Source: a virus. Taken from it: a DNA stretch of 64,000 nucleotides. The notes below the pieces were generated by a model, which was not told where the DNA came from, searched no databases, and saw only the letters and a list, made by a program, of their open reading frames with translations. The translations under genes were made by a program, and so were the position numbers. How positions within the stretch are numbered: the first letter of the stretch is position 1; each line of letters starts with the position of its first letter. The stretch covers positions 1 through 64,000 of the IMG/VR virus record IMGVR_UViG_3300013233_000195, one strand, 5' to 3'. Shown one piece after another: positions 36,046-56,812 of this stretch.

Positions 36046-36446
36046 ATAGCAATCAAGACAAAAGCATCTCTTCGGTTAAGAGAGTCTGCTACTCCTGTGG
36101 TACTGACCTGTCCTCTTGGTGGATGACAACTTGGTGGTCTGATGAAACGGGAGAGCCCGTTGGTCCTTATTGCCAGGATTGTCTGAACAAAGCTAGACAG
36201 ACCTATAGGGAGAGAATGGCGACAATGTTCCTTACACCGGAGAAGATGCTAAAGCGTTGGGCTGAGCGAAATGTTCCGGATGACCCCTTTGCAGTTGCTT
36301 CTCGTGAGATTCGGATAGCGCGGAAAATTATCCGCGCTACTTGGAAAGAGGATATGGGCTCCATACGTCCACGTCGCGCAATTACTCTGCTCAATAAGAT
36401 GTTCGCATACATTCGTACTGTTCTGGAAATAGGAGAAGAAGAATGA
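36042..36446 (+). CDS. hypothetical protein with CxxC pairs
   Basis: CYSC...CQDC; ATGA coupling. Confidence 0.65.
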   Translation: MNSNQDKSISSVKRVCYSCGTDLSSWWMTTWWSDETGEPVGPYCQDCLNKARQTYRERMATMFLTPEKMLKRWAERNVPDDPFAVASREIRIARKIIRATWKEDMGSIRPRRAITLLNKMFAYIRTVLEIGEEE

Positions 36447-36820
36447 AGAAGAACAAAGTGAAGCTGACGAAGCAAAAGACATTAAGATATTGGGCAAACT
36501 ACGCTGTTACAGAGTCAGAGAGAACTGTTGCTCACGAGGTACTGATGCTGCGGGAGATTGTGCGAGCATTCTGGTTGGAAGATAACTCACAGGGAGATAG
36601 CCGGGGACTTGTTTTTCGACACTATCACATTCCTTCCGAGGAACAAGCTGCCTGGATTCACGCTGTGCTCAATGACGCTGGGCCAGATGGTGTAACAGTA
36701 AAACTCAAGAAAGAGGACGCCGAGTGGCTGGCGAGACCGTGCTCCCGACATGGAAGGTACGCCTGCATGTTCCGCATCAAAGAAGCGGTGAAGCGAGCGC
36801 TGGACGCGAGTGATGAGTAG
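36443..36820 (+). CDS. hypothetical protein
   Basis: ORF track; ATGA coupling. Confidence 0.65.
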   Translation: MKKNKVKLTKQKTLRYWANYAVTESERTVAHEVLMLREIVRAFWLEDNSQGDSRGLVFRHYHIPSEEQAAWIHAVLNDAGPDGVTVKLKKEDAEWLARPCSRHGRYACMFRIKEAVKRALDASDE

Positions 36821-36904
36821 CGGCGGGCGGAAGAAGCCGCCCTTCGTGCCGGACCAGGCCCTATTTACAGGGAGGAGCCTAATGAAAATAAGGAGGATTG
36901 GCAT

Positions 36905-37057
36905 TTGGATGCACTAGACCATCTAGCTATTGTGCTATATGGAAGGCCAGCTACTGCGAGAGAGTATTTGGGGGGATCTAATGCAAAGATTCTTGAAGAC
37001 GCGGCGAAGATACTGGAAAGACTTTTGTGTGAGCTAAAGGAGAAAGACAATGAGTAG
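36905..37057 (+). CDS. small hypothetical protein (50 aa, below the track cut-off)
   Basis: TTG start after AAGGAGG, open to TAG at 37055-37057. Confidence 0.45.
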   Translation: MDALDHLAIVLYGRPATAREYLGGSNAKILEDAAKILERLLCELKEKDNE

Positions 37058-37259
37058 TGGTGGAAGAAAGAAGCCGGTATTCCTCCCGAACCCAAGGCTG
37101 ACGGTGGGCGAAGCAAGAGCCCTTCGTAGTTCGAAGGTTATTATGGGGTGGGGGGATGTAATGAGGGTCCATGCCCCAAACTGTAGGTGCCCTGCGTGCC
37201 GTGGCATCCGCAAGCTCCGCGCCGCGCTCAAGCGGATGGAAGAGGAGGAGAAGCCGTGA
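37050..37259 (+). CDS. hypothetical protein
   Basis: AAGGAG RBS; CRCPAC motif. Confidence 0.6.
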   Translation: MSSGGRKKPVFLPNPRLTVGEARALRSSKVIMGWGDVMRVHAPNCRCPACRGIRKLRAALKRMEEEEKP

Positions 37260-37639
37260 AGATCGACCACCGCGAGCTGGAGCGCGACCTGGCCCGCAAC
37301 CCGGCGGACTACGACGATGACAAGGTGCAGACGCGAACCTGCCACTTAGCCAACCAGTACGGGCACGTCTTTGGAAAGGTGGTACTGGCTCCTGAATGCG
37401 GGAGCGACTTCTGTGATAGCTGCGGCGATTGTTTGGGCTGTTCGCAAGCAGACGGTCCCTGCCTCGTGGACGAAGACGGGAACCACTTCTGGGTCCATTA
37501 CAGCGACGACGTGGAGGCGTTGAAAAAGTGGCTCGAAGAAAGGGAGGTGGACGAGGCGCACAGGGAAAAGCTGGTCGCCACCTGGAGTGATTTCGACCCA
37601 CTCAAGCAGGCAGAGAAGGAGGAAAAAAACAATGAGTGA
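37187..37639 (+). CDS. Cys-rich hypothetical protein
   Basis: CGSDFCDSCGDCLGC; probable GTG start 37256. Confidence 0.6.
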   Translation: MPCVPWHPQAPRRAQADGRGGEAVKIDHRELERDLARNPADYDDDKVQTRTCHLANQYGHVFGKVVLAPECGSDFCDSCGDCLGCSQADGPCLVDEDGNHFWVHYSDDVEALKKWLEEREVDEAHREKLVATWSDFDPLKQAEKEEKNNE

Positions 37640-38037
37640 TCACAAGGGAGAAGTGGGAAGCCGACGTGTTCTACGAGGTCTGGAGGCTAGTGATGATTAA
37701 CCTAGACGACAACCGCCGGACGGGGCGTACATCACGGATGCTCGCTGAGGCAGAACGCTTGGTTCGCGAGGAGGGCAAGCCTGTTCTAATTGTTGCGGCG
37801 AACTATGCTCAGTCCGAGGCCCTTCTCAAGCAGATTCCAAAGGATATTTCTGGTTCGATAGAAGTGCTTACTCTCCGAGAAGCGGCAACGCGGATCGACT
37901 TCGGCGAGGGCGATTGGCCCCGGATGTGGGGTTTTTGTGTCTGCCTGGCAGATCACTACGCGACCGAGTTGTTTCTGGAGGAATGTGCTGGGTGGCTGAT
38001 TGATCAGAGGAATCAGTGGGAAGCTGGAGGTGAGTGA
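37636..38037 (+). CDS. hypothetical protein with P-loop-like remnant
   Basis: RRTGRTS motif followed by VLIVAAN. Confidence 0.55.
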   Translation: MITREKWEADVFYEVWRLVMINLDDNRRTGRTSRMLAEAERLVREEGKPVLIVAANYAQSEALLKQIPKDISGSIEVLTLREAATRIDFGEGDWPRMWGFCVCLADHYATELFLEECAGWLIDQRNQWEAGGE

Positions 38038-39116
38038 TGCGAATTGAAGAGTTGCAGCTACACAACTTCCGCCGCTATGAAGCCGCTTTGTTCCGTTTCC
38101 ACCCACAGTTCACAGTCCTCGTCGGTGACAACGGGAAGGGCAAGACAACGGTGCTTGATGCACTGGCGGTGCTGTTTGGCACCTACTTTCAGGGTTCGGG
38201 GATTGAGATAGGGCGACGAACAATCCAGAAGTCAGACGCACGCTTCGTCGTACACGAAGTCGAGGGGCAGGTCTCGTTCGAGCCGCAACGCACGGTCTAC
38301 CTCAAGGCGACGGTGGAAACCGGTGGCCGGTTGCTCACCTGGAGGCGAGATCTTGGAGATCGGGGCTCCAAGGCCCGAGAGCTTATTGAGTTGGGAGCGC
38401 AGCATCGCGATAGGGTCGCGGCGGGAGACTTCACCGACCTCCCGCTGATGCTCTACTATGGCTCGGGTCGGCTGTGGTGCCCTCACAAGGATGTGCAGCC
38501 CGACCGCCCAGGCTCTCGCCTGGATGCATATCGCTTCAGCCTTGACCCCAAGTCCGACCACAAGGGCTTCGAGAGGTGGTTCAAGCGCCTCACATACGCC
38601 GCGCTTCAGAAGGGCACGGAAAGCCCGGCAATTGAGGCGGTCGCGCACGTCGTGAAGTCTTGCATCCCGGATGCACAATCTTTTTTCTTCGACACTGGTG
38701 GGGACCACATGGTCCTCTCCTTGGATGATGGGGAGTCGGTCCCTTTCGACAACCTCTCGGATGGCTTTCGGAACATGGTCGCGATGGTTGCGGACATCGC
38801 CCATCGTGCGAGCCGCCTCAACCCCCACCTCGGAGCGGACGCCCCCGCTCTCACGCGGGGGATTGTGCTCATCGACGAGATCGACCTCCATCTCCATCCG
38901 CGCTGGCAACGACGTGTCGTCCACGACCTGAAGACCGCCTTCCCGGCACTCCAGTTCATCGCCACCACCCATTCGCCGTTCATCCTTCAATCTCTCAGTC
39001 CCGGCGAGGTCATCGACCTTGATCTCGACACGAGCGCAGCCATCGTCAAGGCGACCCTGCCAGGAGCCGCGGCGCTGGCGAAGAAGGAGGCTATAAAAGA
39101 TGAAAAGCGATCTTGA
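38034..39116 (+). CDS. ABC-type (AAA_21-like) ATPase resembling Septu/retron PtuA
   Basis: LHNFR, GDNGKGKTT, YYGSGR, LSDG, LIDEIDLHLHP.WQ, QFIATTHSP; GC-rich DNA. Confidence 0.85.
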   Translation: MMRIEELQLHNFRRYEAALFRFHPQFTVLVGDNGKGKTTVLDALAVLFGTYFQGSGIEIGRRTIQKSDARFVVHEVEGQVSFEPQRTVYLKATVETGGRLLTWRRDLGDRGSKARELIELGAQHRDRVAAGDFTDLPLMLYYGSGRLWCPHKDVQPDRPGSRLDAYRFSLDPKSDHKGFERWFKRLTYAALQKGTESPAIEAVAHVVKSCIPDAQSFFFDTGGDHMVLSLDDGESVPFDNLSDGFRNMVAMVADIAHRASRLNPHLGADAPALTRGIVLIDEIDLHLHPRWQRRVVHDLKTAFPALQFIATTHSPFILQSLSPGEVIDLDLDTSAAIVKATLPGAAALAKKEAIKDEKRS

Positions 39117-39399
39117 AATCCACGAAGAATGTGCTAGAATTCAGGAACAACTAGAAAATCAGCGCGATGAGGCCATCGCTCGTGCAGACAGACTTGAACG
39201 GGAGCGAGCGGATGAGCGCGACCATCCGTGGGCCGACTTTCTGGCCGCTAGGGTCCGGGCCATCAGATGGCTGCGCTCACAGAGGAAAACGAGCGGGGAA
39301 ATCGCACAAGCGGTGTCACTGGATGCTTCGCAGGTGTTTTCGATCCTGCTCAAGAGTGATATTCTGCCGGAGGAGACTCACATGGAGGAGAAGTCATGA
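39100..39399 (+). CDS. hypothetical protein with C-terminal HTH-like segment
   Basis: TSGEIAQAVSL...QVFSIL. Confidence 0.6.
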   Translation: MKSDLEIHEECARIQEQLENQRDEAIARADRLERERADERDHPWADFLAARVRAIRWLRSQRKTSGEIAQAVSLDASQVFSILLKSDILPEETHMEEKS

Positions 39400-39734
39400 A
39401 AGGACGTAGACCGTGGCGGCCTCACCCAAAAGCTGATTCCTTGATTCTCGACGTTGACGGGCATGTTGTGTGCAAGGTCTCTCTGCCCACCGGACAACCA
39501 GCGAAGCCAATCCGGGACATGGTGGTGCGTGCGGTGAACCTTTATGAAAGAGTGCAAGGGACCCGAGAAGAGAGGCCAAGTGTTATACTTGCCGATGACA
39601 AGCCAAGGAAGGTTAACGTAGATTGTCGGAAGTCTCGTACTCGTCATTCCCGGCAAGTCAGGAGACTTCCAAGATTTGTGCCGGATCGGTTTGCTAGCTC
39701 AAAGGGCCTCTGGACAAAAGGAGATGCAAAATGA
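39396..39734 (+). CDS. hypothetical protein
   Basis: ORF track; ATGA coupling. Confidence 0.6.
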   Translation: MKGRRPWRPHPKADSLILDVDGHVVCKVSLPTGQPAKPIRDMVVRAVNLYERVQGTREERPSVILADDKPRKVNVDCRKSRTRHSRQVRRLPRFVPDRFASSKGLWTKGDAK

Positions 39735-39928
39735 AGTTCAAACCACTTACAAGACAGCAGTTAGAAACACTTAGAGATGATGATGGCATTGCAGTCTTTG
39801 AACCCGACACATGGCAAGTTGCTTGTACCGCTCTCTATTACCTGGACCTACTTTGCGATGCCACTATCCGGGCTGAGAGACTTGAACGGGAAATACAAGA
39901 TTCCAATTCAGAAGAAGAAAATAAATGA
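39731..39928 (+). CDS. hypothetical protein
   Basis: ORF track; ATGA coupling. Confidence 0.6.
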   Translation: MKFKPLTRQQLETLRDDDGIAVFEPDTWQVACTALYYLDLLCDATIRAERLEREIQDSNSEEENK

Positions 39929-40098
39929 GAAAATCAACAAAAGGTGTCTTTACAAAAGTCTTCTTTGCTGCCCTCTTTGCAATGGCAGGTGCTCAAGTCC
40001 TTGGAGTTCCTGCACAGTTGATTGCTGGAGGTGGACTAATTATTGCTGCCGCACTCTTCCTTGTGGTGGCTCTTGTAGACTTTCTTATTCCCCTTTAA
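39925..40098 (+). CDS. small membrane protein (57 aa)
   Basis: Manual translation MRKSTKGVFTKVFFAALFAM...; two hydrophobic segments. Confidence 0.55.
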   Translation: MRKSTKGVFTKVFFAALFAMAGAQVLGVPAQLIAGGGLIIAAALFLVVALVDFLIPL

Positions 40099-40108
40099 GG
40101 AGAACACA

Positions 40109-40744
40109 ATGCAGTATCCAAAGATTCAATCTGTTTGGAAAAGAGATCCAAAAACGCCCAAGTATCTTTTGGAAGGCCAGTGGACCACACCAGAATTCGA
40201 GTACCTTAAGGATCTCTTCTGGGAGTGGACGGAGAAGGTTGATGGAATGAATATCCGAGTCATCTGGGACAAGGATAGCCCCCAGCCACTTCGGTTCGCT
40301 GGTAGGACGGACAGAGCACAGATCCCAACATTTCTACTAGACAAACTTTTTGAGTTGTTCCCACCAACTAAGTTTGCAGACTTTCCAGATCAGATTACTC
40401 TGTTTGGAGAAGGTTACGGTGAAAAGATTCAGAAGGGTGGGGGCAATTACGGCGAGCCTTCCTTTGTGCTTTTCGATGTTTTCTGTGGCATGTGGCTCAA
40501 AAGAGACAATGTTAATGACATCGCCGCAGTGCTAGGTATTCGATCTGTGCCAGTCGTAGGTTTTGGGACTCTTCCAGAACTGGTTAAGTATGCTGAAGCT
40601 GGTCCCGACTCATGCTGGGGAGATTTCACTGCTGAAGGATTTGTTGCCCGCCCAACATTTGAGTTGCTTGACAGAAGAGGAAACAGAATCATCACAAAGA
40701 TAAAGTACAAGGACTTTAATCATGGAGATTCAAATGTCGTTTGA
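40109..40744 (+). CDS. ATP-dependent RNA ligase, Rnl2-like nucleotidyltransferase domain
   Basis: YPKI, EKVDGMN (KxDG), FGEGYG, FDV, EGFV, KIK. Confidence 0.85.
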   Translation: MQYPKIQSVWKRDPKTPKYLLEGQWTTPEFEYLKDLFWEWTEKVDGMNIRVIWDKDSPQPLRFAGRTDRAQIPTFLLDKLFELFPPTKFADFPDQITLFGEGYGEKIQKGGGNYGEPSFVLFDVFCGMWLKRDNVNDIAAVLGIRSVPVVGFGTLPELVKYAEAGPDSCWGDFTAEGFVARPTFELLDRRGNRIITKIKYKDFNHGDSNVV

Positions 40745-40892
40745 TAGCGCTGTAAAGGTCTCTAGAATCATTATAACGGTTGCATCTGGTTTCACAGGCA
40801 TCTTCCTCCTTGGAGCGGCCCCAAAAACCATTCTAGGTATCTTCCTGCTTGCTTATGCGTTTATCCGCATCATAGGAGATCTCTACTTATGA
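40734..40892 (+). CDS. small membrane protein (52 aa)
   Basis: Manual translation MSFDSAVKVSRIIITVASG...; two hydrophobic segments. Confidence 0.5.
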   Translation: MSFDSAVKVSRIIITVASGFTGIFLLGAAPKTILGIFLLAYAFIRIIGDLYL

Positions 40893-40995
40893 AGACCAAA
40901 AAACCAACAATTCTAGACAATAACAACCTTACTAGAAAAGAGCGTAAGGCGGTTATACGAGCACTTTATCAACTCATCCAAAACTTAGAGGATCA

Positions 40996-41325
40996 ATGGC
41001 AATTATGGAAAAGATGACAAGTACACAAGAACAACCGACCACACTAAGACTTTGTCACCGCTCCGAAGCCCCCAAAACATCTTTGACTTTTGAGACCGCA
41101 TTACCAGTCTACAACAAGCTCAAGCCATTTCTAGCCCTTCGTAAAAACCTTCTATTCCCAGGGCAGTTTAGATCAGCCGGAAAACATCGTTGTTTGGCAA
41201 CCTCCGCAAGAATGTTTACCGAAGTCGTGTGGGCACCAAATCCAGCGCAAAAATACAGAAGGCTCAGATACGACGAGTTCTGCGCATACTACAACATTTA
41301 CCCTTTCAATGGTCGTGAATTTTAA
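40996..41325 (+). CDS. hypothetical protein
   Basis: ORF track, GAGG RBS. Confidence 0.55.
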   Translation: MAIMEKMTSTQEQPTTLRLCHRSEAPKTSLTFETALPVYNKLKPFLALRKNLLFPGQFRSAGKHRCLATSARMFTEVVWAPNPAQKYRRLRYDEFCAYYNIYPFNGREF

Positions 41326-42017
41326 TGCTTACCGTAGGTTCCTGCTTTACTGGCATCGGTGGTATTGATATTGGGCTCTCACTAGCAGGGCTCAAAGTCC
41401 TTTGGCAGATTGAAATAGATCCCCAATGCCAAAGAATCCTAAAATCCCATTGGCCCATCACAACACTTTACAAGGATATTTGCAATGTTCCAAAGACAAT
41501 CAAGCACGTTGACGTTATCACTGGAGGTATCCCCTGCCAACCCACAAGCCAAGCAGCCGCCAGAACCCACAGGGGGAAACATTGGATGTGGCCTCCCTTC
41601 TTCAACCTTATCAAAACTCTCAAACCCAAATACGTTATCATTGAAAATCCCCAAAGTCTTCGCTTCCGTCAAAGAGGACTTGGCGAAATACTCCAAGACT
41701 TGGCCCAAATCGGGTATGATGCGGAATGGTCTGTGTTACGAGCTTCCGACATTGGAGCACCACACAGAAGAGCCCGAATATGGGTGGTTGCCCACCCCCA
41801 CAGCAAAAGCAAACCAGACAGCACCATCCATGCAGAAGCACCGCTCCTGTCGCAATTTACAAAGACTGTTCCCTGGCCCGATCCACCCAAACATATTCGA
41901 ATGGCTTCTTGGGTTCCCCATAGATATGACAGACTTAGAATGCTTGGAAACGCGGCCATGCCCGCCATGGCCCACACAATAGGAGAATACATTCTCAATC
42001 ATAATGGAGAATCATGA
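41325..42017 (+). CDS. DNA (cytosine-5) methyltransferase, main (alpha-like) polypeptide
   Basis: FTGIGG (I), GIPCQ (IV), ENP (VI), HRRARIW (VIII), LGNA (X); no motif IX in this frame. Confidence 0.9.
   Translation: MLTVGSCFTGIGGIDIGLSLAGLKVLWQIEIDPQCQRILKSHWPITTLYKDICNVPKTIKHVDVITGGIPCQPTSQAAARTHRGKHWMWPPFFNLIKTLKPKYVIIENPQSLRFRQRGLGEILQDLAQIGYDAEWSVLRASDIGAPHRRARIWVVAHPHSKSKPDSTIHAEAPLLSQFTKTVPWPDPPKHIRMASWVPHRYDRLRMLGNAAMPAMAHTIGEYILNHNGES
41716..41982 (+). CDS. nested alternative-frame beta-like subunit of the C5 methyltransferase
   Basis: WLPTP and PNIFEWLLGFP (motif IX-like) in the +1 frame; frame is open from 41485, so the start is uncertain. Confidence 0.7.
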   Translation: MMRNGLCYELPTLEHHTEEPEYGWLPTPTAKANQTAPSMQKHRSCRNLQRLFPGPIHPNIFEWLLGFPIDMTDLECLETRPCPPWPTQ

Positions 42018-42238
42018 AACCTTTTAGAATTGTCCACACAAAGGAAACCAATCATTATGAAATCCGTGAAATCGTCTATGACACAAACAAGAACATTGTA
42101 AACTCTTTTCCCACAATCCTTGTAGAAGCAACACAAGAAGAACTCTTACAAAAGGTTAAAGATATAATGGAAGCGTTCTCCTCCCCAGTTTTACACTCTT
42201 CACCACTACATAGACGTAGTAGGCTAAAAGAACACTAA
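42014..42238 (+). CDS. hypothetical protein
   Basis: YEIREIVYD; ATGA coupling. Confidence 0.6.
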   Translation: MKPFRIVHTKETNHYEIREIVYDTNKNIVNSFPTILVEATQEELLQKVKDIMEAFSSPVLHSSPLHRRSRLKEH

Positions 42239-42280
42239 AGATACTGAGATAACCATTATCATCACACAAAGGATAATAAA

Positions 42281-42499
42281 ATGAGAACAAAACAAGATCA
42301 ACTATGCCCGCGCTGTATGGGCACAGGAACCTACATATTTCCAGGCGACTCGACCCCAACCTCCTGTGAGTGGTGCCATACCACTGGCAAGGTAGACCGG
42401 TACACAAAAGATAGGTGTATAGAGTTCTACAGACAACAGAAACAAAAGAAGCACATCTCCACCCTCCCAATCCATTTGAGGCCAGCACAGGGCAAATGA
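42281..42499 (+). CDS. small DnaJ-type zinc-finger-like protein
   Basis: CPRCMGTG...CEWCHTTG. Confidence 0.6.
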   Translation: MRTKQDQLCPRCMGTGTYIFPGDSTPTSCEWCHTTGKVDRYTKDRCIEFYRQQKQKKHISTLPIHLRPAQGK

Positions 42500-42554
42500 G
42501 GGGGACTACAAGCGATTCTCACACAAGAGTTGAGCACAGGGAGTGGCCCCCGCT

Positions 42555-42700
42555 TGTGCTCGTTAGTATAACATACCATTTTTTTGAGCTAAATTTACAT
42601 TGGCTAATTTTTTTTGAGCTTCTGTGCTCTCACCTGTGCTCTTTAGTGTAACATACCATTTTTTTGAGTCATTTTTATGGTGGCTATTTTTTAGCTTAGT
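42555..42700. repeat. two imperfect direct repeats, 80-bp period
   Basis: TGTGCTCnTTAGTrTAACATACCATTTTTTTGAG at 42555 and 42635, each followed by TGGCTA and a T run. Confidence 0.85.
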
Positions 42701-42813
42701 TCATGCCACCTTGAGATTTCCGATTTTGGAGTAAAAGATATCTATATCTTTTTATCCGGAGTTGGACTGGCGGAATGCCCCACGCGCGCGTTGCGCGTGG
42801 GGCCCGCCCCTAC

Positions 42814-43491
42814 CTACTCCGCGTCGTCGTCCGCGTCGTCGTCCGCGTCGTCGTCCGCGTCGTCGTCCGCGTCGTCGTCCGCGTCGATCAACGCGCGGAC
42901 GGCCGATTCGGACGCATCCCGCTCCAGCGTATCAAGCTGGCGGGCCAGCGTTTCGTGATCGGCGATCACGCGTCCCAAAAGCGTGTCGTCGTCCCCAGTA
43001 GGACGTTCCAAGAGAGAACGAACCCCGCGCAATGCCGACAGATAGAGTTTGTCATGATTCAGAACCGGATACCAGATAGACTTTTGAACCCCCTCCATCG
43101 CAAGCCGGGCCTCAGGCTTGTGGGCAAGGTGCGCAGGGAGTCCGGAAACAATCGCGGCTTGCGCCGTCCATCGGGCGGTTTTTCCCGCCGCGTGATAGGC
43201 GACTAGCCGACATTCTCGAAGTACTGTATCGGCCTCTTTTCCACCTACCTTGTAGGCGTGAATCTCCACCTCCTGCCCCTTGGGTTTGCGTCCACGCCGC
43301 GTAGCTTTGCCTGATACTCCCTCCGCGATCTTTCGGATTGCGTCAAGGGGATCATCATCGGCCACCATTCCGAGAATCCCGACACCGGCCAAGCCAATCA
43401 TGCCGACCAAGGTGCCAGCGTTGACGACTTGCGCCACAAGCTCCAACGCGAGCAACGCAAGAGCAAAAACGAGGAGCCAAGAACTACGCAT
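42814..43491 (-). CDS. membrane-anchored hypothetical protein with (DDAD)n acidic tail
   Basis: GGAGG RBS, hydrophobic N-terminus, GC-rich DNA. Confidence 0.65.
   Translation of the reverse strand: MRSSWLLVFALALLALELVAQVVNAGTLVGMIGLAGVGILGMVADDDPLDAIRKIAEGVSGKATRRGRKPKGQEVEIHAYKVGGKEADTVLRECRLVAYHAAGKTARWTAQAAIVSGLPAHLAHKPEARLAMEGVQKSIWYPVLNHDKLYLSALRGVRSLLERPTGDDDTLLGRVIADHETLARQLDTLERDASESAVRALIDADDDADDDADDDADDDADDDAE
42818..42886. repeat. 12-bp tandem repeat, 5.75 copies
   Basis: (TCCGCGTCGTCG)x5 plus 9 bp. Confidence 0.95.
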
Positions 43492-43494
43492 AAC

Positions 43495-43683
43495 CTACCT
43501 TCCTTCCATGCGCCGACAATCGGCGCGCTTGCGGGCCCTCACGGTCCCTACGATAGGGACCATGAACAACCCGATCAATCCTAGCAGGCTACAACCCACT
43601 AGTGCCACGACTACGCCGCCCCTTGCGCCGTCGCCGTGGACTAGTGCATAGTCCATGCCAGACTCTATCCCGTTGATTTTCAA
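43495..43683 (-). CDS. small membrane protein
   Basis: One hydrophobic segment and basic tail; probable start 43656. Confidence 0.5.
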   Translation of the reverse strand: MKINGIESGMDYALVHGDGARGGVVVALVGCSLLGLIGLFMVPIVGTVRARKRADCRRMEGR

Positions 43684-43943
43684 CGACTTAGGTTTTCGCC
43701 GATCCGTCGATCCGTCAAGCCCACCGACACCATCCCGACGGCCAAAACGGCGTAACTCGTTGTCACGTAAGGAGTTAGGCCATTTTCGACCAGCGTAAAG
43801 AATTCCGTCAACGGTAAAATCGACCGAAACTCGGAAACGCCGAATTCAGCCCCTACAGGCCGAATACGCCCATTCTGCGGTAGGTCCAGAATTATCGAAA
43901 GATTCCGTCGATCTGGCCTAACTTGAGAAAAATCAACGGGTTA
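43666..43943. promoter_or_regulatory. three 25-bp IHF-like dyad sites
   Basis: 43666-43690, 43753-43777, 43919-43943, each TA...TTA; AATCAACGGGTTA (43931-43943) matches WATCAANNNNTTR exactly. Confidence 0.65.
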
Positions 43944-43979
43944 CGAGGTTCCAGGTTTCGGCTGGCGGATCGGACGGTT

Positions 43980-44064
43980 TGGCACGATTCTTGCTCAAAT
44001 CTCGAGGGTTTTTTTTGGCACGATTCTTGCTCTGGCACGATTCTTGCTCTGGCACGATTCTTGC
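43980..44064 (+). promoter_or_regulatory. cluster of four identical sigma54 (-24/-12) boxes
   Basis: TGGCACGATTCTTGC at 43980, 44016, 44033, 44050 (TGGCAC-N5-TTGC; last three on a 17-bp period). Confidence 0.8.
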
Positions 44065-44542
44065 TCAACGGCCAAATGATAATAGATTCCCATTCTCAAC
44101 CCCCCCCATGCTAAACATATCTATAGTGTATTCTATACTGTATATTGCTTATCTTATTTCTAATCTTATATTCCAATCCAGTCTTCTAATATTCCAGCCA
44201 GTTATTAGTATTCTATTCCGATCTCCCCAATTTCTTGTTAGAATGGGGCCAAAATCGACTAGAATTTCTTATATTGATAGTATGAGCCCAATACAGTCAA
44301 TATAGCGTTTTTCACCTCCCCAAAATGCGTATATTGATAGATAGCTGGGATTATTCCTAAAGGAAACGCACTTTAGCCTTTTCAGAACCGCTATAATCTT
44401 TGTATTTCACAGGGGATAATATCAGGCTAATAACAGTATTATTTATCGCCACAATCAACCGATTTCGGTTGCCATCGCCAGTAAGGCGTCTAGCTTGCGC
44501 TCTAAGCGATTTTCATCTTTGGGGATGCCTGGAGTACCCTAT

Positions 44543-44644
44543 TCGACGATCGTCGATCCTGACGCAATTCAGGGCCGTTCCCGTCGATTCTCCGCCCGTG
44601 ATCGGGACGCAATTCCCGATTCCGGGAATCTGGACGCGATACCA
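44543..44644. other. cluster of palindromes and hairpins sharing a loop sequence
   Basis: TCGACGATCGTCGA; CCTGA-CGCAAT-TCAGG; ATCGGGA-CGCAAT-TCCCGAT; GATTCC-G-GGAATC; TGGA-CGCGAT-ACCA. Confidence 0.7.
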
Positions 44645-44658
44645 CAATATGAATATAC

Positions 44659-44698
44659 AAAAAAAATAGGCGCTAGGAGGAATCCCCTAGCACCTATT
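44659..44698 (-). terminator. intrinsic terminator
   Basis: Minus strand AATAGGTGCTAGGGGATTCCTCCTAGCGCCTATT followed by a T tract. Confidence 0.8.
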
Positions 44699-44939: not shown

Positions 44940-45219
44940 CTACGAGCCTTCCGCCGCACATACAATACCGGATGGTATTGCTATTCTCTTCGTCCAGTGC
45001 ATTCCGAATTGAATGATTCAATTCGGAGAGCTTTTCTAGCCCCACAATATGGGCAGGAAGAATATACTCCTCTTCCTGCCCATAGGGGATTCCGGTTCCT
45101 TCAGCCATTGTTATTCTCCAAATCGTGAAGGAACGAGTCAACAACGTTTGCGGCCTTTTCTTCCACACCATATCTTTGCAGATACTCGTGGAGAATATGG
45201 TTGATAGAATCATCATCAT
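44866..45219 (-). CDS. hypothetical zinc-ribbon protein
   Basis: CMCGG...CEDCG; true start probably MAEGTG. Confidence 0.55.
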   Translation of the reverse strand: MMMILSTIFSTSICKDMVWKKRPQTLLTRSFTIWRITMAEGTGIPYGQEEEYILPAHIVGLEKLSELNHSIRNALDEENSNTIRYCMCGGRLVDGITCAICEDCGAVHDLLEEEEDD

Positions 45220-45839: not shown

Positions 45840-45940
45840 TCTAACCTCCTATGGAAAGAGAAAAGAGAAAAAGTAATATCTAATAGGCTTTGCAAGCCTA
45901 CGCTCCAAGTATCGACCCGGACCCGGGGGCCGGTCAAGCT

Positions 45941-45958
45941 TGTAAAAACTTTTTTACA
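45941..45958. promoter_or_regulatory. palindromic operator TGTAAA-N6-TTTACA
   Basis: Exact match to the TyrR/PhhR-box pattern; 11 bp before a sigma54 box. Confidence 0.55.
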
Positions 45959-45969
45959 ATCGGCCCGGC

Positions 45970-45984
45970 TGGCACGATTCTTGC
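45970..45984 (+). promoter_or_regulatory. sigma54 box
   Basis: TGGCACGATTCTTGC. Confidence 0.75.
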
Positions 45985-46073
45985 GGGGCCGGCCAGATGG
46001 CCTACTGAACAAACGTATAGTAAAATTTGAAAATCCTTTTTATTGATTGATTTTTTCCCCTTCCGCTGTTTAT

Positions 46074-46247
46074 CTTATAATCTCTTTTATATCGCCTAGC
46101 TTATCTTATGGGGGATTTCTTATCGGGTGTCTTATCTCTAATGAGGCTTCATATCGGCTATCTTATTCTATCATGCTTGACTCTTATCTTATCGGGGCTC
46201 TTATAGTGGTTTATATCTTATAATGGAATTCTTATCGGGTGTCTTAT
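46074..46247. repeat. CTTAT-rich non-coding tract
   Basis: About 12 CTTAT pentamers; TTCTTATCGGGTGTCTTAT twice (46117, 46229) and a variant near 46187. Confidence 0.8.
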
Positions 46248-46250
46248 AAT

Positions 46251-46285
46251 AAAAAAGGGGATAAGAGCTTTCGCTCTTATCCCCT
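46251..46285 (-). terminator. intrinsic terminator
   Basis: Perfect stem GGGGATAAGAGC-GAAA-GCTCTTATCCCC followed by T6 on the minus strand. Confidence 0.9.
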
Positions 46286-46306: not shown

Positions 46307-46738
46307 TTAGGAAAGCCTCTCCGCAAGATTGTTGAGATCCTCAAGCATTCCCTTCCCTTGCGTATTCGCAAGAATGGTGTTCATTTCCTGAGCATCGAAG
46401 TTTCCTTCACTATCAGTGAAGAGAAACATCGTAAGAGCAGTAGCAAAGGAAAGCTGAACGTTGAGAGGATTTCCTTCTTCATCCGGAAGAGTCTTTTGAA
46501 TGACAGGAAAACGCTGTACGTTTCCCCTACCCTTGCCAGGAAACTTGATAGTAAGCTGCAAGGAAGGAATCTCTTCTCCTGTTTCCGTATCAGGCTTGGA
46601 AACAAGCTGAGCGGAAAGATACTTATGGGGCGATGGGTATTCCTTATGGACAGTGATATTGCTCTGTGATTCTGCCTTATGATTCTCGGGGACTTCAGGA
46701 ATGAATCCCAGCATTGTAATTCCTTTCATTGTGTTCAT
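46307..46738 (-). CDS. hypothetical protein
   Basis: Followed by a strong terminator; probable start MLGF after AAGGA. Confidence 0.7.
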   Translation of the reverse strand: MNTMKGITMLGFIPEVPENHKAESQSNITVHKEYPSPHKYLSAQLVSKPDTETGEEIPSLQLTIKFPGKGRGNVQRFPVIQKTLPDEEGNPLNVQLSFATALTMFLFTDSEGNFDAQEMNTILANTQGKGMLEDLNNLAERLS

Positions 46739-47217
46739 TGTGTTGTGCTATGACCCTAATAGCTTGTGAAACCGTTTTACCATGCTTCACAAGGTATAAG
46801 AACATTGGACGCTTCTGGAGAATGCTTTGTTTCTCTTTCATATCTTCCTTATGAGAAGAAGGGAAGAGACTGTATTTCTATAGAATTCCTCCTATTTTGA
46901 ATTGATTAGATATTCCTTGGATGCTGGGCGATCCAGCGTATGAATTCCGGAAGATTCTTATTCTTTGTTTTCCTTTTTGTTCCCTTTCGGAAACACTTAG
47001 CGGATTTGTGCGATGCGTGGGTGTATTTCAGGTTTCTATCTCTTTTGGACTTTTGCTGTCTTCTTTTCATGATGTTCCTTCTGTCGTTGGAAATGACTCG
47101 AACAAAGGAAAATCCTTTCACCAAACTTATAGATGTGGTGTGTTGCGATGTTATCACAGCGGGAACAGTAGTATGTTCCATTGATCTTTGTGACTGGAGC
47201 TTGCCTTGTGTTGTATC

Positions 47218-47814
47218 TCATTTCTCCTCCGCAGTAAGTATAAGTCTGATTGCCGCATTCCAATCTATTGCGTTTGATTCACACATTTTTCGGACAACTG
47301 GATTGAGCTTGAGAAACCCCTCAATAAAGTGATATTGATCCTTTGTCTTGGTAAAGACCTCATCCCTGCAAAAGTGAAGGTGCAGGAAACTTCCAAAGAA
47401 ATGAATTGAAATGGTCTCAAACAGAGAACTGTTATCTTCTTTCTCAGAGGGAAAGCAGACATTCTTTTTCAACCCCTTTCTAAGGTCAATTCTAAGGCCC
47501 TCTTCCATACCCTTTTCTTTGGGAAGCCTTACAAAGACCGTCCACTCACAAGCAATTGTTGGAAAGAACCTACTCTTTCCACCGAGAAAACACTCACAAT
47601 CATAGAAGTCCAGAAGATCCCTGACCACATTTAGCACCCATGCACCGCTGATAAGCATTATTCTTCTCCCTTTCTTGTGTCCACTGATTCGACTTGAAGC
47701 AGAGTTGGTGGCACAACCCAAATCCCTTTTGTTTTGTCTTCCCTTACTTTGACGTTCTTGACACAAACCTTTATAACTGTCCCATGATAAACTTCCCTTC
47801 TCTTGTGAAGCCAA
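47218..47814 (-). CDS. hypothetical protein
   Basis: ORF track; probable start MLISG. Confidence 0.55.
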   Translation of the reverse strand: MASQEKGSLSWDSYKGLCQERQSKGRQNKRDLGCATNSASSRISGHKKGRRIMLISGAWVLNVVRDLLDFYDCECFLGGKSRFFPTIACEWTVFVRLPKEKGMEEGLRIDLRKGLKKNVCFPSEKEDNSSLFETISIHFFGSFLHLHFCRDEVFTKTKDQYHFIEGFLKLNPVVRKMCESNAIDWNAAIRLILTAEEK

Positions 47815-47963
47815 GAGACTCTTGAACCGACATGAATGGTCTCTCTTACTTTCTGAAGAGCCCTATCCTGGAGCAATTGATTGATTACAATTCTCTCGGA
47901 TGGCAAGAGATTCTTTCCATGTTGCAGAATAATGGAATAAACCTCTGTGAAAGCGGTACTCAT
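47658..47963 (-). CDS. hypothetical protein with SH3/KOW-like C-half
   Basis: VGSRVSW...GTVIKV..KNVKV...W.VPPTLL; GGGGAGG RBS. Confidence 0.65.
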   Translation of the reverse strand: MSTAFTEVYSIILQHGKNLLPSERIVINQLLQDRALQKVRETIHVGSRVSWLHKRREVYHGTVIKVCVKNVKVREDKTKGIWVVPPTLLQVESVDTRKGEE

Positions 47964-48066
47964 TACTTTCCTCCCCTACTGTGAAGGTTTGAAAAGAAGT
48001 TACTCCAGCCTCTTATGAGGAGAAGTATGACAAAAATGTAGATGGCAATGCCAAAAAGGAAGCGCA

Positions 48067-48411
48067 TTATACTTCTGCCTCCCTTGTGTTTTCGATATAC
48101 TCTCTTGCCTCCTCAAGAGAGTAGAAGCAGTGAGAACGTGGATTTGTGGAACGGGATGGAAGAACTTCCCAAGTATTTCCGAAACACTCTAGGAAAGTTA
48201 CTCCATAGAGCTGCTTTTTGGAGATAGGACCAATTCCCGTTGAAATTTCATAAATAAGACGATAGGAAGCCTGCCCATACTCCACGATGTTTGGAGTCAT
48301 CCAGTTTGTTTTTGGAAGTACATGATTGAAGATTGCGCGAATTTCGCTGTTTGTCATCATTTCTTGCCTCCAAAGGTAGCCTGAAATTCTTCCAAAAAGC
48401 ACTCCAAGCAC
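48067..48411 (-). CDS. hypothetical protein, paralog of 49581-49943
   Basis: MTPNIVEY...IYEISTGIGPI...LYGVTFL. Confidence 0.7.
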   Translation of the reverse strand: MLGVLFGRISGYLWRQEMMTNSEIRAIFNHVLPKTNWMTPNIVEYGQASYRLIYEISTGIGPISKKQLYGVTFLECFGNTWEVLPSRSTNPRSHCFYSLEEAREYIENTREAEV

Positions 48412-48668
48412 TCAATTGCATCATCAATCTCTGGAATCCGCAATCTTGAGGAATACTGCTTTTCGAAAATTACTGGGAGACATAGGCTGTACCGATAAAC
48501 AGCCTCATTTCCCAAAAGGATCATTGGAGGAGTTAGAAAACTCTCAATCTCTGGAGAGTACCAAGACTGTCCATTCTCTGTTCTCTTACGGATGTTCCGC
48601 AAGAGAACAAGCATCATTTCTACCCTAAAACCAATTACTGCTCCCATCTCTGCCTTGAAGCTAATCAT
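48357..48668 (-). CDS. hypothetical protein
   Basis: ORF track, GGAGGT RBS. Confidence 0.6.
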   Translation of the reverse strand: MISFKAEMGAVIGFRVEMMLVLLRNIRKRTENGQSWYSPEIESFLTPPMILLGNEAVYRYSLCLPVIFEKQYSSRLRIPEIDDAIECLECFLEEFQATFGGKK

Positions 48669-48988
48669 TATTCACCTCCCTTGATTATTCCTAGACTCTT
48701 GAGAAGTTGAATGTTCTCTGCGGAGAGTTGAGACATAATATCAATCTTTTCTCCGCGCTTCCTTGCTCTTTTCATGGGAATAACTGTCTTTCGTTCTTCC
48801 CTCCAAACAGTCTTTCCACTCTTGAGATAATAGATTCTCTGGCAGGAACTACAATACTTTGTATCACTCCCCTTTCTTACGGTTAGGCGTGAATGACAGG
48901 AAGGACAAAAGGTTTCTTTTGGCCTATTGTCCTTCAATCTTTCTGCTCTGCATTCTGGACACATGCAATTCGGACAATACATTTTCAC
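48668..48988 (-). CDS. Cys-rich zinc-finger-like protein
   Basis: CPNCMCPEC...CPSC...CSSC; first gene after promoter. Confidence 0.65.
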   Translation of the reverse strand: MKMYCPNCMCPECRAERLKDNRPKETFCPSCHSRLTVRKGSDTKYCSSCQRIYYLKSGKTVWREERKTVIPMKRARKRGEKIDIMSQLSAENIQLLKSLGIIKGGE

Positions 48989-49024
48989 TCTCCTTTCTCT
49001 TGGGGACTTTCCCCTAGCGCTTGC

Positions 49025-49053
49025 ATTATACCATGGCGAGACGTGGCTGTCAA
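49025..49053 (-). promoter_or_regulatory. consensus sigma70 promoter
   Basis: Minus strand TTGACA-17 bp-TATAAT with TG extension. Confidence 0.9.
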
Positions 49054-49073
49054 GCCCGAAATTCGCCGGGTTT

Positions 49074-49088
49074 TGGCACGATTCTTGC
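49074..49088 (+). promoter_or_regulatory. sigma54 box
   Basis: TGGCACGATTCTTGC, 20 bp from the opposite-strand -35. Confidence 0.75.
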
Positions 49089-49187
49089 GGGGCCGGACAA
49101 CCGTCGGTTTTCGCCTTTTCTTCAAACTTTCGGGATAAATTGAAACAAATGTTTTCACTTTTTTATATTTCCGCCATTATTGAGTTA

Positions 49188-49400
49188 CTATTTTGAAGAT
49201 GATTCCTCATCCTCTACTTCAATAACTACAGTAAAGAGGCTGCAACTATCGAAAGCAGACATATGAGCATCACCTTGTATTTGTGAGATTGAAATGATCT
49301 TTCCCTGTAGTCGGAGTGCATTGAGCATATCCTCAATTAATTTAGCCCGATCTTCAAAACCAAATCCAATCGTAAACTCTTCTACTTTCAGCTTACTCAT
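49188..49400 (-). CDS. hypothetical protein
   Basis: ORF track. Confidence 0.6.
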   Translation of the reverse strand: MSKLKVEEFTIGFGFEDRAKLIEDMLNALRLQGKIISISQIQGDAHMSAFDSCSLFTVVIEVEDEESSSK

Positions 49401-49581
49401 TTTTCCCCTCCTTTTCCACCTTCCTAGCTAATCTCCTCCGCCTTGACATTTCATTAGCCTTATTTCGGCAAGTAAAGCAGTATTTTGTGGTTACTAAGGG
49501 TGATTGTCCACACTGAATACAACGCTTTTCTTTCTTACGCTTCAATTGCCAACGTCTTTGCCGAGAAACTTGCTTATCCAT
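49393..49581 (-). CDS. small basic zinc-finger protein
   Basis: CIQCG...YCFTC. Confidence 0.65.
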   Translation of the reverse strand: MDKQVSRQRRWQLKRKKEKRCIQCGQSPLVTTKYCFTCRNKANEMSRRRRLARKVEKEGKNE

Positions 49582-49943
49582 TATTCCTCCTTAGCGCTAG
49601 TGTGATTATTCTTGACTTCCTCAAGGTATTCTTTGGCCTCCTTTAGTGTAAGGAAGACTTGATCTTTTGAGAGGTCTCTATCATCCCATTCTCCCAATTC
49701 CCCCAAATGCAAGAAAGTTACCCCATAAAGAGTCTTATGGGTGATTGGTCCTTCGCCATAAGACAATTCATAGATGGTATCTGGAGTCAATTGTGCGTAT
49801 TCGACTACTCCCGGTGTCATTATGTTTCTTTGTCCATTGAATACCTCTGAGAAGATTTCCTCTATCTCTTGGCTTGACAGAGTCTTTGATAACATATTAT
49901 CTCTCCTCTGGAAGAGCACTAGTAAGGACTTTGATCTCTTCAA
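49581..49943 (-). CDS. hypothetical protein, paralog of 48067-48411
   Basis: MTPGVVEY...IYELSYGEGPI...LYGVTFL. Confidence 0.7.
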   Translation of the reverse strand: MKRSKSLLVLFQRRDNMLSKTLSSQEIEEIFSEVFNGQRNIMTPGVVEYAQLTPDTIYELSYGEGPITHKTLYGVTFLHLGELGEWDDRDLSKDQVFLTLKEAKEYLEEVKNNHTSAKEE

Positions 49944-50181
49944 CGGACATATGCTGTTCCATCGCCATTTTCAAAACACTGCAAGTCTCCTTATGTTTGT
50001 AACAGTTACCAGCAAAGTAACCGCCCATGAAAAGCAGAGTGAAAGCCAGAAAAGAGATCCAGCCCCAAAGATATAGCTTATTATCACTGAGCTGTGGGTT
50101 TACTGCTCTTCTCATTATTATTCCTCCTTTACATGCCCAGGTCATAGATGACTGGCGCTCTAGTATTACAAGAGATTCCAC
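49897..50181 (-). CDS. small membrane protein
   Basis: One hydrophobic segment; probable start MRRAV. Confidence 0.55.
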   Translation of the reverse strand: MESLVILERQSSMTWACKGGIIMRRAVNPQLSDNKLYLWGWISFLAFTLLFMGGYFAGNCYKHKETCSVLKMAMEQHMSVEEIKVLTSALPEER

Positions 50182-50668
50182 AATTTGTCACAGAACCCCA
50201 TGAGAAGAAGACATCGTTGATACCGTACTTCTCAGTGAGGCCCTTGACCAATTCCTTATCTTCATCCTCAAGACAAGCGTCATGATCAAGGGGGATGTAT
50301 TCGCAAATTACAACGGGTTCAACGAATTGTCGAGTGAATGAGCAACGCTTTGAAGGCGAAAAAGCGTAGAAAGTGGGAAAGTATGGTCTATCCTCATTAT
50401 CAATATCATGCCATGCAGACCACTCATTCTCCCCTTGAACCCCTATCTTGATTACAAAGCCAAACTCTGGAAAAGATAGGACATCTCGACTAGCATTGAT
50501 CTCTCTGTGGTCTTTGAACGAGTATTCCTGCCCATCAATGAAGATTCGAGGAGTCCTATAATCTACTTCATCCATCAACTCCTTTGACGTGGAAGCAGTC
50601 AATTCTCCCAATTGAAGCCGTTGAATAATAATAACCCGATGTCCGAGAACTTCAAAGGACTGAATCAT
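50129..50668 (-). CDS. minimal protein-kinase-like fold protein
   Basis: VIKIG, ENE, ICEYI, DV....N.G, PVIYDLG. Confidence 0.55.
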   Translation of the reverse strand: MIQSFEVLGHRVIIIQRLQLGELTASTSKELMDEVDYRTPRIFIDGQEYSFKDHREINASRDVLSFPEFGFVIKIGVQGENEWSAWHDIDNEDRPYFPTFYAFSPSKRCSFTRQFVEPVVICEYIPLDHDACLEDEDKELVKGLTEKYGINDVFFSWGSVTNCGISCNTRAPVIYDLGM

Positions 50669-51126
50669 TATCTTCCTCCCTCCATTTCTTCCAACCAATC
50701 CAAGAAGGCTTCAAGATACTCGATCTTCCTATCGTAGTCGGTATCTCTAGCAGTAGCGTACTCATCAAGAGCACCGTAGCAAACCTCAAAGCAATGATGG
50801 TAATTAGGAGGAGTATACTTATCGCACTTGTGAAAAACACAATCACTGCAATAATTCCGGGCAAGCTTACAGTATGGGCAGGTAGACATTAGAAGGGTCA
50901 GAATTTGGTCAATATAGACTTCCTCCCCCCCGTCGTTAGGATCAATCTCTTTATCTCGGAGACTTTCGAGAAGATCCACGAGAATGTTCAATTTCTCCAT
51001 CGTAAGAGTAAAGGCAATTCTCGCTCCTTCAATAGAAGTAGAAGAATAGCCTTCTGCTACAAAGTCACTTAGTTTGTCCAAATACGTACTCCACCGTTCC
51101 ACAATCTCCGCATAAGATTGAATCAT
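50668..51126 (-). CDS. Cys-rich hypothetical protein, tandem paralog
   Basis: TMEKLNIL.DLL, MSTCPYCKL...YC.DC.F. Confidence 0.75.
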   Translation of the reverse strand: MIQSYAEIVERWSTYLDKLSDFVAEGYSSTSIEGARIAFTLTMEKLNILVDLLESLRDKEIDPNDGGEEVYIDQILTLLMSTCPYCKLARNYCSDCVFHKCDKYTPPNYHHCFEVCYGALDEYATARDTDYDRKIEYLEAFLDWLEEMEGGR

Positions 51127-51611
51127 TCCTCTTCTCCTTCCTTTCCAAAGTGTTCTTCAAACCAATCCATGAAGGCTTCAAGATACTTGATTTTCCCTTG
51201 GAAGAAGTCATCATCCTTCAGGTTAGTATACTTATCAAGGGCACGACGGGATACTCGCAAACAGGGAGGAGGAAAGCCAGGCTCGTTTTTATGAAACCTG
51301 GAGAAGAGACAATCTTCACAGTAGCTGCCTGAGAGTTTACAGTAGGGGCAAGTTGACATTGAAAGACAAAGGATATTCTCAATATCCTCCCAAAGCTCAA
51401 ACCCATTCTCATCTAGGGAATGAGGATCAACCTTGTAATCCCTAAGATCCTTGAGAAGATCCATGAGAATGTTCAATTTTTCCATTGTCAAACCGTAGGC
51501 AATATGCGCTCCACGAGAAGAATTAGGTGGATAACCTTCACCACCAAAACTCTTCAATTCTTCTAAGAAAAGAGTCCAACGTTCTTCAATTGCCTCAAAA
51601 GAATCCATCAT
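51123..51611 (-). CDS. Cys-rich hypothetical protein, tandem paralog
   Basis: Same motifs as 50668-51126; first gene after promoter. Confidence 0.75.
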   Translation of the reverse strand: MMDSFEAIEERWTLFLEELKSFGGEGYPPNSSRGAHIAYGLTMEKLNILMDLLKDLRDYKVDPHSLDENGFELWEDIENILCLSMSTCPYCKLSGSYCEDCLFSRFHKNEPGFPPPCLRVSRRALDKYTNLKDDDFFQGKIKYLEAFMDWFEEHFGKEGEEE

Positions 51612-51665
51612 ATCCTCCTAGATGGAAGTTTTGGAGTGCTTGGGGACTTTCCCCTAGCGCCTATA

Positions 51666-51694
51666 ATTATACCACGGCGGAGATCGGGTGTCAA
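51666..51694 (-). promoter_or_regulatory. consensus sigma70 promoter
   Basis: Minus strand TTGACA-17 bp-TATAAT with TG extension. Confidence 0.9.
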
Positions 51695-51714
51695 GCCCGA
51701 ATTTCGCCGGGTTT

Positions 51715-51729
51715 TGGCACGATTCTTGC
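51715..51729 (+). promoter_or_regulatory. sigma54 box
   Basis: TGGCACGATTCTTGC, 20 bp from the opposite-strand -35. Confidence 0.75.
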
Positions 51730-51749
51730 GAGGAGCCACAAGCGGAGAC

Positions 51750-51790
51750 AAAAAAATAGCCTAAAGGATATGGAAATCCTTTAGGCTATT
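51750..51790 (-). terminator. intrinsic terminator
   Basis: 15-bp stem AATAGCCTAAAGGAT/ATCCTTTAGGCTATT, T tract on the minus strand. Confidence 0.88.
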
Positions 51791-56783: not shown

Positions 56784-56812
56784 ATTATAGCACGGCGGAG
56801 CGGGGCCGTCAA
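56784..56812 (-). promoter_or_regulatory. sigma70 promoter
   Basis: Minus strand TTGACG-17 bp-TATAAT with TG extension; two more GGGGTTGACG upstream. Confidence 0.85.

Follow-up and report, generated by a model that had tools for sequence, protein, structure and literature searches.

The first 64,000 nucleotides (nt) of the IMG/VR virus record IMGVR_UViG_3300013233_000195, referred to here as the window, carry a duplicated cassette in which a sigma-70 promoter stands back to back with a sigma-54-type promoter element. The element is a 15-mer, TGGCACGATTCTTGC, called the box below. There are seven exact copies of it in the 100,623-bp record, where 0.38 are expected, and all seven lie on the + strand. 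Three of them belong to cassettes, with starts at 45970, 49074 and 51715, and four form a tandem array with starts at 43980, 44016, 44033 and 44050. We tentatively infer that host sigma-54 binds the boxes, that they fire and that firing affects the neighbouring operons. In our preferred reading, which falls somewhat short of an even chance, the boxes would be sites for the host sigma-54 holoenzyme and would act as activator-gated rightward promoters, making non-coding or antisense RNA against leftward operons.

Transcription by sigma-54 is a tightly gated bacterial system of stress and metabolism, and it always needs an ATP-driven activator. To our knowledge, the use of sigma-54 by phages is hardly known.

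By every sequence test available, the box appears to be a sigma-54-type -24/-12 element. All seven copies contain GG at -24 and GC at -12 within an exact TGGCACG-N4-TTGC core. The spacer GATTC, which is invariant, forms a GANTC site, which CcrM-type adenine methylases recognise as their target. The base at -11 is T in the four array copies and G in the three cassette copies. Bacterial sigma-54 promoters such as glnAp2, pspA and hycA/hypA have the same core (PMC3844500), and the T at -11 of the array is a further likeness to them. Sigma-54 sites in Salmonella include TGGCACGATTCGTG, TGGCATGATTTTTG and similar sequences, and the box lies at the centre of that list (PMC3844500). The box sequence thus reads as a member of the sigma-54 promoter class. 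An eighth, imperfect match of sigma-54 type, TGGCACGTTAATTGC, is found at 20919-20933 (+). It has C at -11, lies inside a + strand open reading frame (ORF) and is preceded at 370 nt by a consensus promoter; the gene for ribonucleotide reductase is downstream of it.

Copies of the box in other viruses support this assignment. The exact 16-mer formed by a leading T and the box occurs in at least 120 IMG/VR stretches, compared with 29 for a reversed control of equal composition, and is enriched at least 4-fold in viral contigs over that control. Neighbouring the exact boxes in 120 viral loci are 266 further boxes with one to four mismatches. These keep TGGCA, the G at position 8 and TTGC at 81-92% and vary at positions 1, 7 and 9-12. 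Such variation appears to be the sigma-54 pattern, confined to positions that sigma-54 tolerates, and not that of a dyad. Together with the perfect consensus match, it upholds the sigma-54 identity that a preliminary description of this DNA had given to the box. Generic viral copies have A or T at -11 in 82% of cases and a melting region that is 65% AT. Where they are intergenic, downstream sense ORFs outnumber convergent ones 24:10. Such copies resemble working promoters.

Cassette copies 1 and 2 are about 90 bp each (48999-49089 and 51639-51730) and lie 2641 bp apart, with seven small ORFs between them. Along the − strand, each begins with the box as its reverse complement (TGGCACGATTCTTGC being the + strand form), followed by a 20-nt linker, TTGACA, a 17-nt spacer, TGG-TATAAT, four to five bases, GCGC and a GGGGA/TCCCC stem-loop; the ribosome-binding site and the start codon come next. 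The hairpin, the -10 and -35 elements, the linker and the box are conserved between the two copies, while the GC-rich 17-nt promoter spacer has diverged. Both copies, and a looser third one at 45908-45984, are present as the preliminary description reported them. The cassette is best explained as a duplicated intergenic regulatory unit of a large uncultured phage that would use the host RNA polymerase.

In cassette 1, the box (49074-49088, +) is followed by the G at -11 and a GC-rich stretch. The linker between the box and the -35 element (49054-49073) matches that of cassette 2 at 19 of 20 positions, and it holds a weak CCCG/CGGG hairpin with a T-run on the + strand. The consensus sigma-70/sigma-A promoter follows (49025-49053, −), with the sequence TTGACA-17-TATAAT and a TG extension, and then the leader (48999-49020, −), with GCGC and the stem-loop where the mRNA is predicted to begin. 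The first gene (48668-48982, −) has its ATG at 48982 after a ribosome-binding site and codes for a small protein with a weak, sub-cut-off match to a double zinc ribbon.

Cassette 2 has the same arrangement. An exact sigma-54-type box (51715-51729, +) is paired with a consensus sigma-70/sigma-A promoter that also has the TG extension (51666-51694, −), and the leader stem-loop (51639-51660, −) is identical to that of cassette 1. The 22-nt leader sequence, GCGCTAGGGGAAAGTCCCCAAG, occurs exactly twice, both times on the − strand in these leaders, and not at all in shuffled sequences; its predicted fold has an energy of -8.6 kcal/mol. Both promoters score 12/12. With TTGACA and TATAAT separated by 17 ± 1 nt, ahead of a gene with a ribosome-binding site, they fall into the sigma-70/sigma-A class. 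The first gene of cassette 2 (51123-51611, −) codes for 162 amino acids without a family match and is a paralogue of the adjacent gene 50668-51126. The two genes are 91% identical over 44 nt near their 3′ ends, which points to a local duplication inside the module bracketed by the two cassettes.

Cassette 3 is built more loosely. Its box (45970-45984, +) has the downstream sequence GGGGCCGG-CA in common with cassette 1. The promoter, TTGACC-18-GATACT (45908-45937, −), scores 9/12 and lies 32 nt from the box. The leader hairpin (45883-45901, −) has a sequence unlike that of cassettes 1 and 2. A role for the leader stem-loop as a common activator site was considered and rejected, since the hairpin of cassette 3 differs and the array has none. 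Downstream of this box, between a − strand terminator and the cassette, four iteron-like repeats with a period of about 31 nt (TATCTTAT...TCTTATCGGGTGTCTTAT) are found at 46071-46247. This could be a replication or protein-binding region.

Mobile cassettes of an early promoter and a stem-loop, named PeSL, were reportedly described in T4-type phages by Arbiol et al. in 2010. Like the cassettes of the window, they bracket modules of small uncharacterised genes with a repeated strong host-type promoter and a stem-loop, and conservation is confined to the functional elements. They differ in belonging to another type of phage; the cassette described here adds an opposite-facing sigma-54 box.

The pairing of box and sigma-70 promoter is found in other phages. 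When viral contigs were searched for TGTCAA located 15-45 nt before a box, 56 stretches were obtained. About 30-35 of these (29 are tabulated) form a module family that has no nearby proteins in common with this phage. Its members contain, in order, the box, 33-45 nt, TTGACA, 17-18 nt, TATAAT, four bases, GCGC and a hairpin. Its recurrence in these viral contigs shows that the back-to-back pairing of a box and a consensus sigma-70 promoter is not a local accident. In the module family, the relation to genes is the reverse of that in the window: the genes are co-directional with the box, while the sigma-70 partner is antisense and fires into a bidirectional terminator. Conservation thus applies to the pair and not to its relation to genes.

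Over the shared module, the distance from the box to the -35 element is 20, 32-34, 41 or 44-45 nt (20 nt in cassettes 1 and 2 and 32 nt in cassette 3), with no fixed phase. The preliminary description had suggested that bound sigma-54 polymerase represses, activates or blocks the neighbouring promoter sterically. The varying distance and the reversed gene orientation weaken this proposal. Of 43 cassette-type boxes, 27 carry G at -11, and the 11 bases that follow are rich in GC (AT 0.33-0.46), although family members are related and these counts are not independent. Such boxes probably constitute a subclass, marked by G at -11 and a GC-rich melting region.

Several further features accompany boxes in other phages. 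In 38 loci of the module family, several paralogous genes near the box code for small proteins of one family that has a weak GcrA-like match. Loci L015, L188 and L207 and their relatives have a long non-coding region 100-700 nt after the box. It contains repeated units of GCGCCAGTGGAAAACCTTGTCAAGTGCAAAA, TGTGACTG iterons and ATGCTTATATAA repeats, with four DnaA boxes in L207, and looks like an origin or a control hub. Many viral loci (L072, L014, L044, L114, L118, L127) contain mirror-image pairs of boxes, TTGGCACGATTCTTGC-(3 nt)-GCAA....CGTGCCAA. These are face-to-face sigma-54 sites with common -12 ends, sometimes repeated with a 41-43-bp period.

All seven boxes of the window point rightward, against leftward operons. 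What they face is either non-coding DNA or the end of a − strand operon, in the form of its 3′ end or terminator, and no sense gene, in agreement with the preliminary description. No credible + strand ORF follows any of the seven boxes in the record, so only non-coding or antisense RNA is possible downstream. Boxes 49074 and 51715 face a spacer of about 100 nt and then antisense genes. Three − strand terminators are found at 44665-44698, the end of the leftward gene cluster; at 46256-46285, between the operon 46307-48982 and cassette 3; and at 51755-51790, belonging to the operon upstream of cassette 2. All three are one-directional, with a T-run on the − strand only. Because the T-run at 51755-51790 is restricted to that strand, + strand RNA from the box could read through.

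Rightward boxes and one-directional terminators together leave each leftward operon bracketed by a sigma-70 promoter at its 5′ end and a sigma-54 box at its 3′ end. The back-to-back look of the cassettes arises because the operons stand in tandem. The antisense shut-off RNA that had been proposed earlier as one role of the boxes fits terminators of this kind.

The sigma-70 promoters of the cassettes belong to a family of about 16 members, TTGACA-N14-TGGTATAAT, that is spread across the whole record, including the arm with replication and structural genes. Calling them early promoters, as was done before, is therefore an assumption. The members, for instance those at 7223, 14909, 20550 and 32425 (+) and at 56812, 59047, 63443, 69050, 73021 and 100484 (−), share TTGACA-N14-TG(G)TATAAT and often have GC-rich spacers and a TGTG motif before the -10 element. 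For both arms, the phage seems to depend on the primary sigma factor of its host. Only the three family promoters nearest to the zone where the arms converge carry a box.

The four-box array (43980-44064, +) has T at -11 in each copy, and its last three boxes follow one another with a 17-bp period. An IHF consensus, WATCAANNNNTTR (43931-43943, +), lies 37 nt before the first box and is one of only three matches in the window. Further upstream, TCCGTC(G/A)A occurs four times (43703, 43711, 43804 and 43904, together spanning 43703-43911, +), out of seven occurrences in the whole record. These repeats are spaced at roughly 100-bp steps and form a candidate activator (enhancer) cluster. Bacterial sigma-54 promoters show a similar anatomy, to which the array corresponds with upstream sites at about -100, -200 and -300 and the IHF consensus at about -67. 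The layout would match a textbook enhancer-dependent promoter, with activator sites at about -100 to -300 and IHF near -67.

Downstream of the array lies a non-coding stretch of about 600 nt (44065-44664, +) that is AT-rich and repeat-rich and holds no credible ORF. It opens with GGCCAAATGATAAT..ATTC..CATT, which is like a Fur-box-like sequence at the same place after boxes in other phage contigs. Directly after the last box, 44071-44095 reads GGCCAAATGATAATAGATTCCCATT. This is similar to GGCCAAATGCGAATCATTATCATT, a Fur-box-like palindrome that follows the boxes of unrelated contigs (L188, L200, L207) at an equal distance. Fur-box-like sequences also adjoin the boxes of other array loci (L291, L299, L175). 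Homology beyond the box between the non-coding regions of the window and other loci was rejected, as only about 25 nt after the array match. Rfam gave no match in 42-53 kb of the window or in six related loci.

Tandem exact boxes, defined as two within 30 nt, are found in 35 other viral contigs, and there are none in 185,579 prokaryotic genomes (596 Gb). The viral arrays contain up to five copies with periods of 19-53 bp, peaking at 25-28 and 41, and are often followed by 400-1000 nt without ORFs, by a crude ORF call.

In the mechanism that we propose, the host sigma-54 holoenzyme would form a stable closed complex at each of the seven boxes. Until it is activated, this parked polymerase would do no more than mark the boundary of an operon. 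A host activator, or an unrecognised phage activator, would then fire the boxes. This activator would most plausibly bind the repeat cluster that, with the IHF site, precedes the array. Once the boxes fired, transcription would proceed rightward into the 600-nt non-coding region and also back across the leftward operons. At the 3′ end of every such operon a convergent promoter would thus work against it, which could lead to transcriptional interference or antisense RNA.

Several observations weigh against this mechanism. The three cassette boxes combine G at -11 with a GC-rich melting region (AT 0.09-0.45) that is poor for open complex formation, and they lack enhancer-like repeats and an IHF site; such candidate sites lie upstream of the array only. 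The 17-bp period cannot accommodate several holoenzymes at once, and at 45002-45028 a hairpin followed by a T-run on the + strand could end transcripts from the array prematurely. The 100-kb record, which is 37% complete, contains no match to sigma-54 (Sigma54_DBD), to a bacterial enhancer-binding protein (PF00158), to HTH_8, to AAA or to sigma-70 region 2. The PF00158 activator domain was also not found in 20 other box-bearing viral records, four of which are at least 96% complete. The activator would then have to come from the host or from an unseen part of the genome. The host, and hence the presence of rpoN, was not identified through the DNA polymerase, portal protein, ATPase or RtcB. In three of these respects, the G at -11, the GC-rich melting region and the missing activator gene, the phage differs from bacterial sigma-54 promoters. 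It also differs from them in that its boxes come in identical multi-copy sets, include abutting 17-bp repeats and have no sense gene.

Another model for the boxes is passive docking, in which sigma-54 or its holoenzyme is bound and not meant to fire. The boxes may represent a sponge that withdraws host sigma-54 as phage DNA replicates, or the parked polymerase may act as a boundary or insulator between operons. This would account for the absence of an activator gene from this and the 20 other records, for the lack of sense genes downstream of the boxes, and for cassette-type boxes with an unfavourable -11 base and melting region in both the window and the module family. Every copy is an ideal consensus, and exact copies in tandem appear to be a feature of viral contigs and not of prokaryotic genomes. 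The E. coli chromosomal locus datA, which titrates DnaA, is comparable, since it too groups high-affinity sites for a single host factor and controls no gene. However, datA is chromosomal and acts on DnaA, while the copy numbers of the phage box are low. Some contigs of the module family are about 100 kb long and complete with terminal repeats, and these have one or two boxes each at a single locus, too few for titration. Array periods of 17-28 bp are, from general knowledge, shorter than the footprint of a holoenzyme, so that the copies cannot all be filled. The enhancer and IHF anatomy of the array is typical of a promoter that fires, and the generic viral copies look like working promoters as well. 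We know of no sigma-54 sponge that has been described. Passive docking is unlikely, although it keeps an appreciable chance.

The boxes might instead be origin-associated promoters. Their transcripts would enter repeat-rich, AT-rich non-coding DNA to open or prime an origin, and the sigma-70 partner would provide divergent transcription and supercoiling. Such a role is suggested by the repeat-rich DNA without genes that the array (600 nt) and box 45970 (300 nt) face, and by the ORF-free stretches that commonly follow arrays elsewhere. Likewise, the box of the module family faces iterons, and in some contigs DnaA boxes, while its sigma-70 partner fires only into a terminator. The model does not suit boxes 49074 and 51715, with their short spacer and the antisense genes beyond it. 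Several origins within 8 kb would be unusual, and GC skew in the window follows only the switch in gene strand. We regard origin priming as quite unlikely.

Still less probable, and in our judgement very unlikely, is that the box is an operator or iteron of a phage DNA-binding protein (a repressor, partition or replication protein) that merely resembles a sigma-54 site. Operators of this type could explain why the seven copies agree at all 15 positions, including GATTC, and have different flanks. Iterons and centromeres typically consist of direct repeats that abut, as the 17-bp repeats here do, the core of the box forms a partial dyad (GCAcGA-T-TCtTGC), and the iteron-like 31-nt repeats at 46071-46247 are nearby. 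However, a phage-encoded operator would co-vary with its protein, and the exact 15-mer is present in well over 100 viral contigs of widely differing sequence and GC content. The same site in such unlike contigs makes a universal host factor, the sigma-54 holoenzyme, the economical reader. Neighbouring copies vary in the sigma-54 pattern instead of as a dyad, and no protein family near the boxes is common to this phage and the other box-bearing loci.

Two further candidates were rejected. A terminase or pac site was suggested by TerL, which is near the box in 62 loci, but no other protein is conserved across these diverse phages, which explains its presence there, and pac sites would differ between lineages. 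An attP or tRNA-derived core would not be expected seven times, and the reverse complement of the box misfits a tRNA 3′ end.

Sites comparable to those of our preferred reading, in which the boxes fire against leftward operons, are known from bacteria. Intragenic and antisense sigma-54 sites have been mapped by chromatin immunoprecipitation in Salmonella (PMC3844500) and Yersinia (PMC7657599), and they likewise lie against genes or beside sigma-70 promoters. Such antisense or adjacent sites have been proposed to act by interference, antisense RNA, repression or activation (PMC3844500). The bacterial sites are degenerate, single and scattered, whereas the phage boxes are perfect, repeated and part of a conserved module.

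Among phages, Pseudomonas phage YuA has a sigma-54-like promoter (Ceyssens et al. 2008, as cited in PMC10914365). YuA also relies on the host polymerase and has both sigma-70-like and sigma-54-like promoters (PMC10914365). Its sigma-54-like promoter is a single sense promoter, and no arrays or back-to-back cassettes are reported for YuA (PMC10914365). In the literature searched, no paper gives the 15-mer or describes such arrays or cassettes. To that extent, the earlier view of an undescribed system stands; it does not extend to sigma-54-like phage promoters as such, one having been published for YuA (PMC10914365).

Should the sites fire, phages would have a gated programme of antisense or non-coding RNA that is linked to a host signal. 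Should binding be all that happens, phages would sequester or park one form of the host polymerase. Either outcome would be a new mode of transcriptional interplay between phage and host, and would offer compact, portable regulatory parts. Because the box is the universal consensus, the question is directly testable with existing sigma-54 reagents. A broader idea, which is speculative and unlikely, is that perfect sigma-54 sites give many uncultured phages, this one included, a private channel of transcription under phage control, or else serve them to trap the host sigma-54 holoenzyme; a factor other than a classical AAA+ enhancer-binding protein would open or lock the sites. On this view, the cassette would be a portable unit for switching operons off through convergent transcription when that factor appears.

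The window forms part of a record with a CheckV completeness estimate of 37%. Its rightward arm (1-42.6 kb) includes genes for a DnaB-like helicase, a family A DNA polymerase, ribonucleotide reductase, RtcB and a portal protein. The leftward arm, from 44.7 kb, consists of small genes, most of them without known function, and the two arms converge in a gene-poor stretch at 42.7-44.7 kb. No close relative was found among phage isolates: megablast of the cassette region and of one related locus gave no matches, and the tandem-array query gave only chance matches. Protein-seeded searches with the cassette 2 gene and a DUF932-like gene found no relatives. The DNA polymerase and the portal protein have distant matches only, and RtcB is about 50% identical to proteins from many phyla.

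A GC-rich island (53-56% GC, compared with about 45% elsewhere) extends over 36000-44000 of the window. It contains a fragment of a C-5 cytosine methylase and an ABC-type ATPase of 360 amino acids. The ATPase is 50-63% identical to genes from very diverse bacteria and archaea, so it appears to be a widely transferred gene and no pointer to the host. Two kinds of repeats lie close to the junction of the arms. At 42818-42898, within the − strand ORF 42814-43491, a 12-nt tandem repeat comprises seven register-shifted copies of a TCCGCGTCGTCG unit. At the end of the rightward arm, 42546-42692 contains two 67-nt direct repeats that are 80 nt apart.

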